Part shown: piece by piece, positions 46,605 through 50,968 of the stretch
Numbering within the stretch: the stretch's first letter is position 1
Layout of the letters: each line of letters begins with the position of its first letter
Source of the DNA: Dehalococcoidia bacterium
Lineage (GTDB): Bacteria; Chloroflexota; Dehalococcoidia; GIF9; UBA5629
NCBI GenBank assembly: GCA_034433775.1
Contig: DAOUAI010000032.1
Location: 206-64,205 of the forward strand
Reading direction: 5' to 3'
Length of the DNA stretch: 64,000 bases
Notes under the pieces: generated by a model
Seen by the model: the letters and a program-made list of their open reading frames with translations, nothing else
Told to the model about the DNA's origin: nothing
Database searches by the model: none
Program-made: the position numbers and the translations under genes

Positions 46605-47802
46605 CTATTCTAATATCTTGCTGATAGCACCAGCACCAACTGTTCTGCCACCCTCTCTAATAGCAAAACGCAGCCCGGATTCCAAGGCAACCGGGTATAT
46701 CAACTTAACAGTCATCTTTATATTATCTCCAGGCATTACCATCTCAACACCCTTGGGCAACTCGATAGTGCCAGTGACATCCAATGTTCGTATATAAAAC
46801 TGAGGCTTGTAACCATTAAAGAAGGGGGTGTGACGCCCACCTTCCTCTTTTGTCAACACGTACACCTCAGCTTCAAAATGCGTGTGGGGCGTGATAGAGC
46901 CAGGAGCAGCCAGGACCTGCCCCCTCTCGATTTCATCACGCTCTATGCCTCTGAGCAGACAGCCAACCGCATCGCCAGGCTCTGCAAACTCAAGCGTTTT
47001 ATGGAACATCTCCAAGCCCGTTATCACGGTCTTGCGTGTTTCTTTGATGCCAACAATCTCAACTTCATCACCTACCTTCGCCACACCACGCTCCACCCTG
47101 CCTGGCTACTGTGCCACGCCCCTTGATTCCAAAAACGTCTTCGACCGGCATCAAGAACGGCTTATCCTTCGGTCTAACAGGCAATGGAACCCACTCGTCG
47201 ACAGCATCCGTCAGCTGAAGAATCTTGCCGCACCACTGACACTCCCTCTTACCACAGCCGCACTCCAAAGCTTTTAACGCGCTTACTCTAACCACAGGCG
47301 TCTTGTCACCCGGGAAACCGTATTTTGCAAGTAACTCCCTAACTTCAAGTTCAACAAGCTCGAGCAGCTCTTCGTCCTCCATAGCATCTACCTTGTTCAA
47401 TGCTACCAGCATACTGGGCACCTCGACCTGGCGAGCCAGAAGAATATGCTCTCTGGTCTGGGGCATAGGACCATCGGGAGCACTCACCACCAGTATCGCA
47501 CCATCCATCTGGGCTGCACCTGTAATCATGTTCTTTATATAGTCGGCATGCCCGGGGCAGTCCACATGAGCATAATGGCGTTTCTCAGTCTCATACTCAA
47601 TATGAGCGATAGCAATCGTCAAACCGCGTGCTTTCTCCTCAGGAGCATTATCTATAGAATCAAATGAGCGAAACTGAGTTGGTCCATTCTTCGACAACAC
47701 CAGCGTAATCGCTGAGGTCAAAGTGGTCTTGCCATGGTCCACATGACCAATTGTCCCTACATTAACATGCGGTTTGGTTCGCTCAAAAACCTTCTTTGCC
47801 AT
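46605..47802 (-). pseudogene. tuf: elongation factor Tu split by an apparent 2-nt deletion (frameshift near 47103)
   Basis: N-terminal ORF ([22 protein letters not shown]) ends ...[17 protein letters not shown]; C-terminal part resumes in the +1 frame as [15 protein letters not shown]; the junction corresponds to canonical GRGTVVTGRVERG. Confidence 0.85.
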
Positions 47803-49226: not shown

Positions 49227-49928
49227 ATGATAAAGGACAAAATACTACAACAAGCCAGGAAAGAAAAAAGAACACTGCTCACCGAGATCGAATCCAAAGA
49301 CCTTCTAGAAGAGGCTGGGATACCTGTTGCCAAGGCTAAGTTAGCACGGACAAGGTCCCAAGCAATTTCCTTAAGCAAAGAGATGGGGTTCCCTGTGGCA
49401 CTGAAAATCGTTTCACCTGATGTAATCCATAAAAGCGATTCCGGTGGTGTCAAACTTGGACTTCGCAATGCAACCCAAGTTAGCAAAGCTTACAGTGACA
49501 TACTTTCCTCAGTGAAACAGCGCCATCCTGATGCAAGAATTTATGGTGTCTCAGTCCAGAAGATGGCTCGCCCGGGGATAGAAGTTATAATCGGCATGAC
49601 AAAAGATGCACAATTTGGCCCAGTGCTGATGTTCGGACTCGGTGGAATCCTAGTCGAGGTTCTAAAGGATGTTGCTTTCAGAATAGTACCACTCACAAAA
49701 AGAGATGCCAGAGAAATGATAAAAGAGATAAAAGGCTACCCGCTGCTCCAGGGTTACAGAGGACAAGAGCCTGCGGATATTGCTTTCCTTGAAGAATTGC
49801 TGATAAAAGTCTCCAACTTTATCGAGAAAAACCCTGAGATAAAAGAGTTGGACCTCAATCCCGTTTTCGCTTATAGAAGCGGAGCAGTAGCGGTGGATGC
49901 CCGGGTGATTCTGGAACCTTTTTCATAA
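49227..49928 (+). CDS. ATP-grasp domain protein, ADP-forming acetyl-CoA synthetase beta / succinyl-CoA ligase beta-like
   Basis: LLEEAGIPV, ALKIVSPDVIHKSDSGGVKLGL, IEVIIGM ATP-grasp pattern; no alpha (CoA-binding) partner in the window. Confidence 0.65.
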   Translation: MIKDKILQQARKEKRTLLTEIESKDLLEEAGIPVAKAKLARTRSQAISLSKEMGFPVALKIVSPDVIHKSDSGGVKLGLRNATQVSKAYSDILSSVKQRHPDARIYGVSVQKMARPGIEVIIGMTKDAQFGPVLMFGLGGILVEVLKDVAFRIVPLTKRDAREMIKEIKGYPLLQGYRGQEPADIAFLEELLIKVSNFIEKNPEIKELDLNPVFAYRSGAVAVDARVILEPFS

Positions 49929-50002: not shown

Positions 50003-50038
50003 GCTTAATTGCAGCTAAAGACAAAACTGCAATTAAGC
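50003..50038. terminator. perfect 12-bp stem-loop between convergent transcripts
   Basis: GCTTAATTGCAG ... CTGCAATTAAGC with 12-nt loop; U-rich run follows on the minus strand only. Confidence 0.4.
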
Positions 50039-50096
50039 ACACTCTATCAGCAAGGTAAATAAAGAGGTTAGCAGGGAAATTAGTCTTTAAATAAAA

Positions 50097-50170
50097 CGAC
50101 CCCGATGGGATTCGAACCCACGATCTCCACCGTGACAGGGTGGCATGTTAGTCCGCTACACTACGGGGCC
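50097..50170 (-). tRNA. tRNA-Asp(GTC)
   Basis: Acceptor GGCCCCG/CGGGGTC (one G-U), anticodon loop CTGTCAC, T-loop TTCGAAT, discriminator G. Confidence 0.8.
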
Positions 50171-50640
50171 ACGCTCTATGAGAAAGCTCTACTATAAGGG
50201 CAACAGCCCTTAAAATCTAGAAGTAAGTCTACCAACACTACATCAGAAGTGTCAAGGATTGTACTCGTCCAGTACACCAGTGACACATATTCTCAATTGT
50301 TTAATGGAAAGCTGCAGCTAGATTCCCCTTACCTGTCCTCTCCCGCAAGGGGGAAAGGGATAAAAAGGTAGCTCTCCCACAGAGGTGAGAGGACTTTTCT
50401 CCATTGATAGGAGAATTCTTCCTTCTCTCCTCCCTTGACGAGAAAGCTCTTCCTTCCTCCTCTCTTTTGGCGGGAGAGGACTAAGGTGAGGGTGAAATAA
50501 AGCAGCCGGTGTCCTTCCCGTTTCTGCTACGTCCTGTGTCGTCCATCTATCTGAACGAGATCAGGAATCCCCAGCTCTTCAGAATTAGCTCGTGCCAGCT
50601 TGACAGTTATTCGAAACGTCTGTTACCATGAATTGACAAA

Positions 50641-50713
50641 GGGGATATAGCTCAATAGGGAGAGCACTGCGTTCGCATCGCAGGGGTCGGGGGTTCGAAT
50701 CCCCCTATCTCCA
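50641..50713 (+). tRNA. tRNA-Ala(CGC)
   Basis: Acceptor GGGGATA/TATCTCC with G3:U70 alanine identity pair, anticodon loop TTCGCAT, T-stem GGGGG/CCCCC. Confidence 0.8.
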
Positions 50714-50968
50714 TTTAATTTCAATAGAGCTAACAGGGAAATTTTGGCAACCTTATTTAATAGCTCGGCCCCATTGAGAATCTTATCCAAGACATCATTT
50801 TTCTGAAAGTTAACTTAGCCCGCTAGGTTTACACACGTGCTACAACCGTACGATACTCCTCGGTATCTCTAGAAGCACATTCAATGCAGTCCTGCTCGCC
50901 AGAAGGATAGAGACTTGCAAAATATGATTGATATGCGCATCTGATTATTTCTGCTAAAATAGTGTTCA

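Follow-up and report, generated by a model that had tools for sequence, protein, structure and literature searches.

A small hairpin-rich insertion between two divergent tRNA promoters in a Dehalococcoidia genome

The tRNA-Asp/tRNA-Ala locus and its control region

The genes for tRNA-Asp and tRNA-Ala diverge from a 469-bp gap in the 64-kb stretch of Dehalococcoidia DNA analyzed here (hereafter the window), and comparison with related genomes resolved this gap into a conserved tRNA control region that is interrupted by a 308-bp insertion. The gap had been described from its letters as structured, GA/CT-rich, and free of open reading frames (ORFs) of 60 aa or more, and had been read as a non-coding RNA (6S-like, small RNA (sRNA), or riboregulator) or a decayed insertion (the original prediction). 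The lack of coding capacity was borne out, the longest ORF with a start codon being 40 aa and the longest stop-free frame 80 aa.

Eighty loci from GTDB species representatives were fetched with the 233-aa ATP-grasp protein encoded just upstream of the tRNA pair (49227-49928). All but one were labeled Dehalococcoidia or Chloroflexota (Chloroflexi) (79 of 80), the exception being L075, an “uncultured delta proteobacterium.” The gene order tRNA-Thr/Tyr/Thr, ATP-grasp, tRNA-Asp (-)/tRNA-Ala (+) was found in full in three loci, namely L002, with ~94% nucleotide identity to the window over 20 kb, and the outgroups L004 and L005, both at ~79%. Alignment of these loci with the window divided the region as follows.

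50096-50171, minus strand: tRNA-Asp (GTC), called by ARAGORN and scored at 61.7 bits by the Rfam tRNA model; identical in sequence in L002, L004, and L005
50172-50258, minus strand: conserved tRNA-Asp leader and promoter (promoter scan and four-genome alignment)
50255-50258, no strand: left copy of AGGA, a candidate target-site duplication overlapping the last base of the tRNA-Asp -35 box
50259-50566, no strand: block present only in the window, its 308 bp comprising 304 bp of new sequence (50259-50562) and a second AGGA (50563-50566)
50567-50640, plus strand: conserved stretch 5' of tRNA-Ala, including its promoter (promoter scan and four-genome alignment)
50641-50713, plus strand: tRNA-Ala (CGC), called by ARAGORN and scored at 69.3 bits by the Rfam tRNA model

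The tRNA-Asp promoter on the minus strand comprised a -35 box TTGACA (50255-50250), an 18-nt spacer, and a TG-preceded -10 box TAGACT (50231-50226), scoring 10/12 in the promoter scan. Its -10 box lies ~55 nt 5' of the mature tRNA-Asp end, with a leader of ~48 nt. The tRNA-Ala promoter on the plus strand also scored 10/12, with -35 TTGACA (50600-50605), an 18-nt spacer, and -10 TACCAT (50624-50629) ending ~12 nt 5' of the tRNA. The segments AGTGTCAAG and TAAGTCTACCA of the tRNA-Asp leader and promoter were unchanged across the window, L002, L004, and L005, as were GCTTGACAG and TACCAT on the tRNA-Ala side (4/4 genomes). Both -35/-10 hexamer pairs fell in alignment columns invariant across the four genomes, and the ancestral 160-bp spacer was therefore a compact divergent promoter region. 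The conserved ~160 bp are the shared control region of the two divergent tRNA genes. Directly 3' of tRNA-Asp, a terminator-like hairpin with a 14-bp stem followed by a T-run (50003-50038, minus strand) is probably the terminator of that gene.

A lineage-specific insertion between the two promoters

The spacer between tRNA-Asp and tRNA-Ala measured 469 bp in the window compared with 160 bp in L002, 155 bp in L004, and 156 bp in L005. The four-way alignment placed the difference in a single block of ~308 columns occupied by the window only, with sequence retained on both sides; the flanks were near-identical in L002 and conserved in part in L004 and L005. The junctions read GTGTCA-AGGA-[304 bp]-AGGA-ATCCCC in the window and GTGTCA-AGGA-ATCCCC, with a single AGGA, at the empty site of L002. 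The BLAST alignment between the two genomes stopped at 50258 and restarted at 50563, the junction placement being slidable by up to 4 bp, and no other indel of 6 bp or more was detected inside the aligned window/L002 blocks. Junction microhomology of at least 4 nt occurred at a frequency of 0.017 among random window positions 305 nt apart. The insert lies between the core promoters, in contact with the tRNA-Asp -35 box at its upstream edge and 33 nt 5' of the tRNA-Ala -35 box.

As the outgroups at ~79% identity share the short form, one gain in the window lineage is more parsimonious than repeated identical losses, which makes the 308 bp an insertion specific to this lineage, set between the conserved promoters of two tRNA genes. 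Conservation in relatives, which had been proposed as a check on the RNA interpretation, was not observed, the block being missing at the orthologous site in L002, L004, and L005. The insertion offered as the alternative fared better: the structured 308 bp are lineage-specific and the remainder of the gap consists of the two conserved tRNA promoters and leaders.

Two other origins of the 308 bp, as ancestral sequence that the relatives have deleted or as an artifact of assembly, are very unlikely. Palindromes are readily deleted, and a short direct repeat like AGGA can mediate this with precision, yet L002 and both outgroups (L004 and L005), with their colinear spacers, would each have had to lose exactly the same sequence. 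An artifact might be suspected from at least one probable sequence error or frameshift in the window, a 2-nt gap in tuf relative to L002. The insert is, however, unique and imperfectly palindromic with intact flanks, and no stretch of the window is duplicated or chimeric in it.

The tuf (EF-Tu) gene itself (46605-47802, minus strand) is broken up in the window, where two ORFs of 244 aa and 163 aa overlap, compared with one 399-aa ORF in L002. The alignment around 47090 contains the 2-nt gap, GCCA--GGCAGG against GCCACGGGCAGG in L002, and the break is a probable assembly error or genuine frameshift.

Apart from the insert, the sole other large difference between the window and L002 was also at this locus, where L002 carries ~150 extra AT-rich bp directly 3' of tRNA-Ala (L002:11203-11356, at about window position 50735) that are missing from the window. 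This block is flanked by a TAACA direct repeat, is unrelated to the window insert, and was found nowhere else in the fetched loci. Small insertions have thus entered this one tRNA locus independently in two sister lineages. Immediately right of the insertion, GAATCCCCAGCTCTTCA (50565-50581) matches the tRNA-Ala 3' end (50697-50713) at 13 of 17 positions and is present in L002 and missing from L004 and L005; as about one such match is expected by estimate, the similarity was judged to be due to chance.

The neighboring 15 kb encode nusG, rplK, rplA, rplJ, tuf, a FMN reductase, the ATP-grasp protein, a GAF-GGDEF-HD protein, a CitMHS transporter, and Usp, and are core genome. Exact look-ups of the flanking proteins returned one 1.4-kb Logan contig that stops short of the gap, and the GGDEF protein was without a record. 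An identical ATP-grasp gene is carried by SRR11582153.

Anatomy of the insert and its counterparts in other genomes

The insert contains hairpin-forming units at both ends and throughout a long palindromic core that resembles the REPINs, hairpins of repetitive extragenic palindromic (REP) units.

50260-50276, no strand: left-end perfect palindrome TGTACT-CGTCC-AGTACA, 17 bp (sequence and fold)
50322-50497, no strand: core, a long imperfect palindrome forming a REPIN-like hairpin, with 12-bp perfect arms at 50335-50346 and 50470-50481 (arms and folding)
50322-50370, minus strand: hairpin-motif copy A, degenerate and in reverse orientation, CCCCTTACCTGTCCTCTCCC-GCAA-GGGGGAAAGGGATAAAAAGGTA (read from the sequence)
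50371-50394, no strand: inner hairpin GCTCTCCCACAGAGGTGAGAGGAC (repeat search and folds)
50397-50415, no strand: inner hairpin TTCTCC-ATTGATA-GGAGAA (repeat search and folds)
50394-50424 and 50425-50455, no strand: tandem pair of 31-nt units, 71% identical (repeat search)
50448-50497, plus strand: hairpin-motif copy B, CTTCCTTCCTCCTCTC-TTTTGGC-GGGAGAGGACTAAGGTGAGGGTGAAA (nhmmer and regular-expression matches to solo copies elsewhere)
50547-50562, no strand: right end CTATCTGAACGAGATC, a small hairpin ATCT-GAACG-AGAT and degenerate inverted copy of the left palindrome

Folding of 50318-50500 gave one long hairpin per strand, with minimum free energies of -86.2 kcal/mol on the plus strand (z -5.0) and -87.9 kcal/mol on the minus strand (z -6.3), and 0 of 200 shuffles were as low on either strand. 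This equal folding on both strands is what a DNA palindrome would give. The 12-bp inverted repeat of the original prediction proved exact, with 123 nt between its arms and an estimated chance expectation of ~0.007; it sits at the center of a ~176-nt hairpin formed by pairing between the outer arms of the two motif copies, A and B. The core matched itself on the opposite strand (E 2.6e-8) and copy A gave a weak nhmmer match to L038. Tandem Repeats Finder reported nothing in the insert, its 31- and 34-nt repeats being too degenerate.

The other features listed from the letters were likewise present, some with coordinates off by one. A polypyrimidine run, CTCTTCCTTCCTCCTCTCTTTT, begins at 50447, and the nested GTACT...AGTAC pair (50261 and 50271) falls within the perfect 17-bp palindrome. 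The direct repeat GAGAAAGCTCT is real, its copies being at 50180 and 50440 rather than 50181 and 50439. By rough estimate, ~0.03 chance 11-mer repeats are expected in 470 bp. With one copy inside the conserved tRNA-Asp leader and its partner within the insert, the repeat is probably coincidental and was set aside. The description as GA/CT-rich held for an alternating strand asymmetry (purine fractions of 0.16, 0.77, 0.26, and 0.82 in successive blocks of the gap) and failed as a uniform property, the whole gap being 48% purine and 47% GC. Alternating purine-rich and pyrimidine-rich blocks are a signature of stacked hairpins.

Both ends of the insert are small hairpins with related loops, CGTCC and CGTTC. 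Aligned with the reverse-complemented right end, the left end matched at 10 of 17 positions (TG-TACT-CGTCC-AGTA-CA / TG-ATCT-CGTTC-AGAT-AG), a terminal inverted similarity that is only suggestive. As single-stranded DNA, the left end can form an extended hairpin (50249-50285) in which native GTGTCA..GG pairs with CC..TGACAC of the insert. A promoter-like sequence, GTGTCA-17 nt-TACAAT, was noted at the left end on the minus strand (50258-50286), its -10 spanning the junction and facing the tRNA-Asp promoter, and the equivalent site in metagenome contig L082 reads GTGTCA-17-TACACT.

The core motif, CCTCTCCC-loop-GGGAGAGGAnTAAGGTGAGGGTGA, builds the core as inverted copies and was found sporadically in other Dehalococcoidia and in a contig of a viral catalog. 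In other Dehalococcoidia loci it took the solo form CCTCTCCC-loop-GGGAGAGG-N(1-8)-GGTGAGGG. Solo copies were detected with nhmmer and regular expressions at L067:19938-19984 (E 7.7e-6), at L073:8243-8293 as a full palindrome, twice in L075, and in L038; in the IMG/VR contig copy (L085:8953-9001), similarity runs beyond the motif, GGGAGAGGACTAAGGTGAGGGTGAAAT..GCAGCC. A strict pattern gave seven matches in the window and loci together (~1.2 Mb), comprising copy B, both strands of the one L073 palindrome, and four others, and no further unit was present in the 64-kb window. On inspection, the solo copies retained the same stem sequence without compensatory changes, and such constant rather than covarying stems fit repeat DNA better than an RNA under structural selection. 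The insert is non-coding, palindromic at the DNA level, and assembled from repeat units found elsewhere. A second dispersed hairpin repeat (GTCATTGCGAGG... / TGTCATTCTGAGC...GAATGACG) stands beside the palindrome or the GGGAGAGG-type motif in several contigs and, in L083, follows a small GIY-YIG nuclease gene.

L082:1195-1312, L083:1180-1240 (minus strand), and L085:8780-8900: second hairpin repeat

An alternative reading of this structure as a recently acquired sRNA gene or cis-regulatory RNA, which might serve as a decoy, as a stabilizer or terminator, or to regulate the transcripts of the neighboring tRNAs, is quite improbable. It would fit the strong predicted structure, the promoter-like GTGTCA-17-TACAAT on the minus strand of the left end, and a weak terminator-like hairpin at 50397-50415, and many REP elements have been proposed to be transcribed and to act as RNA hairpins (PMC3733652). 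Nevertheless, the insert's sole promoter-like site points outward and not across the hairpin, and neither strand has a T-run after the large hairpin. The equal folding of both strands is typical of a DNA palindrome, the solo copies of the motif keep their stem sequence without covariation, and absence of the block from a 94%-identical relative implies that it is not needed.

The Rfam searches proposed as a second check also returned nothing for the gap (50172-50640) at gathering score, the only matches in the whole window being seven tRNAs. With permissive filters (E<=10), the sole match within the gap was GHRLOS, a human long non-coding RNA, at 11.5 bits compared with a gathering score of 48, which was taken as chance; other sub-threshold matches fell on tRNAs or outside the gap. 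With no Rfam match, no such block in the closest relatives, and equal folding of both strands, the original prediction of a 6S-like RNA, sRNA, or riboregulator was not upheld and the gap as a conserved non-coding RNA is not supported.

A scan of Joint Genome Institute (JGI) metagenomes with the left-end 20-mer GTACTCGTCCAGTACACCAG identified three contigs, L082, L083, and L084, the last with two copies. L082 matched window 50250-50288 at 37 of 39 positions (95%), a similarity that spans the junction and takes in the native TGTCAAG; the left-end 29 nt were 100% identical to L082:1165-1193. L083 and the two copies in L084 had the 17-mer palindrome plus flanking bases in common with the window. 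GTCAAG, which on the other strand overlaps a TTGACA-type -35 box, lies 3-4 nt left of the palindrome in four of the five instances. The first ~10 nt to the right (CCAGTGACAC) were common to three instances, beyond which the sequences were unrelated, and no right-end motif was shared among the carriers. A different hairpin repeat, of the GTCATTGCGAGG type, comes after the palindrome in L082 and L083. As a control, the bare 17-mer was found six times in viral contigs, always without both flanking features, and there looks like chance or coding sequence. A scan of L082-L084 at Rfam gathering score gave nothing beyond tRNAs and chance matches.

The palindrome of L082 forms the 3' end of a gene (L082:844-1188) for a 114-aa HTH_17/Sigma70_r4 “excisionase family” protein that is 90% identical to protein P0002 of L088. 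The two contigs are identical up to GTCAAGAAGT, after which L088 has a normal gene end of 62 nt and L082 a palindrome-led segment of 147 nt, and they realign thereafter. GTCAAG pre-exists in the element-free relative in two independent comparisons, the window with L002 and L082 with L088. Palindrome-led segments may therefore favor a site just after GTCAAG, as suggested by these few cases, of which the L082 event also involved a deletion.

Over 300 matches to the ~114-aa HTH_17/Sigma70_r4 “excisionase family” were recorded (including P0001-P0120), most of them on contigs under 2 kb, a possible sign of repeated DNA. On a 182-kb Dehalococcoidia contig, a family member lies ~1.5 kb from two Phage_integrase genes (L086:6001-9963).

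Three further explanations of the palindrome were rejected. An operator 5' of a -35 box does not suit L082, where the copy is inside or antisense to a gene end, or L084, where transcription from the implied promoter would enter a tRNA fragment in antisense. The idea that genes of the HTH family ordinarily end in the palindrome conflicts with L088, which has a different 62-nt end where L082 has the 147-nt replacement. A link to the IS3 family was dismissed on the unrelated inverted repeats of the insertion sequence (IS) in L084.

It is possible, if rather unlikely, that the insert belongs to a class of small mobile DNA, as yet undescribed, that inhabits genomes of the Dehalococcoidia type. Such elements would have one conserved ~30-nt hairpin end, TGTACT-CGTCC-AGTACA-CCAGTGACAC, would integrate 3-4 nt downstream of GTCAAG, and would carry variable REP-like hairpin loads, the pairing of TGACAC..CC with target GG..GTGTCA allowing DNA-guided target choice.

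Doubtful to a similar degree is that the insert is not a transposing unit and instead derives from a larger integrative or mobile element, as a scar left after deletion or a captured piece joined through microhomology at (G)TGTCAAGGA. Similarity spanning native and inserted DNA encloses the left junction, the 39-nt L082 match (95%) including native TGTCAAG, and the carriers have just one end in common. The palindrome-led segment of L082 replaces 62 nt of the 3' end of the HTH_17 gene and is hence no clean insertion, and the homologous gene in L086 neighbors two Phage_integrase genes at ~1.5 kb. tRNA loci are classical integration sites, one L084 copy is ~180 nt from an apparent tRNA 3' fragment (not called by ARAGORN), and L002 has its own 150-bp indel by the same tRNA-Ala. 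The window flanks are, however, otherwise untouched and the junction has a tidy 4-bp repeat. No integrase, att-like tRNA duplication, or other element gene was found nearby, and the similarity of 50565-50581 to the tRNA-Ala 3' end (13/17) is at about chance level by estimate.

Interpretation and comparison with known systems

The preferred reading, to which a probability of roughly 0.6 is assigned, is that the insert is a non-autonomous mobile element of the miniature inverted-repeat transposable element (MITE) or REPIN type that was moved in trans and tolerated since both core promoters remained intact. The 304 bp of non-coding DNA would have landed between the promoters, against the tRNA-Asp -35 box, after the split from the closest sequenced relative, and the insertion would have duplicated the 4 bp AGGA. 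The element would consist of the short palindromic left end, the degenerate inverted right end, and the core of inverted and tandem hairpin-motif copies. A transposase or recombinase supplied in trans, with a putative preference for a site 3-4 nt 3' of GTCAAG, would have moved it, and the position may have been kept as the space between the two core promoters tolerates insertions. Any cellular effect would probably be incidental: promoters 308 bp farther apart, an added cruciform-prone palindrome, and the promoter-like GTGTCA-17-TACAAT facing tRNA-Asp.

Several results weigh against this reading. No second full 304-bp copy was found with blastn and nhmmer in the window and the 80 related loci (~1.2 Mb; nhmmer on 85 loci), in phage or plasmid collections, in viral contigs probed with the left-end 18-mer and two more insert k-mers, or in JGI metagenomes probed with the left-end 20-mer. 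The other left-end carriers share only ~40 nt with the window and neither body nor right end. The 10/17 terminal match is weak, being equaled by ~4% of random 305-nt window segments, and the 4-bp AGGA could equally stem from microhomology-mediated joining. No transposase or integrase was among the annotated genes of the 15 kb around the site, and a protein database search with the 80-aa stop-free frame gave no candidates.

Six-frame peptides of the palindrome also gave no candidates in the protein database, a search that missed P0001 as well and whose word index is thus unsuited to the purpose. No IS sharing the insert ends was found. In the literature, the palindrome appeared in no paper, no paper paired Dehalococcoid* with MITE, and the motif strings occurred only in unrelated eukaryotic papers.

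For annotation, the gap should not be called a non-coding RNA gene and is better described as a promoter region with a strain-level insertion. The insert offers a dated case in which small hairpin-repeat DNA moved within a Dehalococcoidia lineage that is uncultured, being present here and absent at 94% identity, and it landed exactly between two tRNA promoters with neither broken. Should the preference for GTCAAG hold, the conserved palindromic end would be the hallmark of a mobile element that is site-specific and aimed at promoter-like sequence.

Among known systems, 6S RNA and long-hairpin sRNAs are similar in their ~180-nt irregular hairpin within a non-coding gap. The insert differs from them in having no match to Rfam 6S or any bacterial RNA family, in its lack of conservation at 94% identity, in the equal folding of both strands, and in having no framing promoter or terminator.

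Rolling-circle elements of the IS91/ISCR type insert next to CAAG or GAAC, and those of the IS91 type are not known to make a duplication. Taken as a lead only, they are similar in having one conserved end by (GT)CAAG with variable sequence and length beyond. The palindrome-led segments differ in the 3-4 nt between CAAG and the conserved end and in having no HUH transposase, and the insert differs in its 4-bp duplication.

REP elements, REPINs, and bacterial interspersed mosaic elements (BIMEs) consist of short hairpin units arranged inverted (head-to-head) and in tandem to form a larger hairpin (PMC3733652; PMC3116915). The insert is similar in this arrangement, with a 20-40 bp palindromic unit present as an inverted dimer (the CCTCTCCC-loop-GGGAGAGG pair making the 176-nt hairpin), and in the dispersal of the unit motif through intergenic DNA of related genomes. 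The definition of the REP unit includes a GTAG or CGTC tetranucleotide tag at one end (PMC3733652), whereas inspection found no consistent tag in the copies of the window, L038, L067, L073, L075, and L085, CGTC occurring solely in the loop of the unrelated left-end palindrome. Further differences are that the 64-kb window has no other unit, that the copy number looks low, and that the insert's purine/pyrimidine-asymmetric arms and GGTGAGGGTGA tail are absent from described families. No REP-associated tyrosine transposase (RAYT) was seen in the 15 kb annotated around the site.

MITEs such as the Correia elements of Neisseria and the enterobacterial ERIC sequences are similar to the insert in being ~300 bp, non-coding, and intergenic with a long hairpin, in the junction direct repeat, some terminal inverted similarity, and presence or absence between close relatives, and in a promoter-adjacent site with an outward-facing promoter-like sequence. 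The insert is below the ~600 bp typical of a MITE without coding capacity (304 bp; longest start-codon ORF 40 aa) and has a candidate target-site duplication (AGGA; chance ~0.017), which microhomology joining would resemble. It differs in that one copy is known where MITEs are multiple (window, related loci, phages, plasmids, viral contigs, and metagenomes), in weak terminal inverted repeats (10/17), in having no identified parent IS or transposase, and in that other left-end carriers have different bodies and right ends. The insert therefore resembles a MITE or a REP cluster, yet is a demonstrated member of neither; a small repeat-type insertion is ordinary in kind, and what is unusual here is its neatly resolved position.

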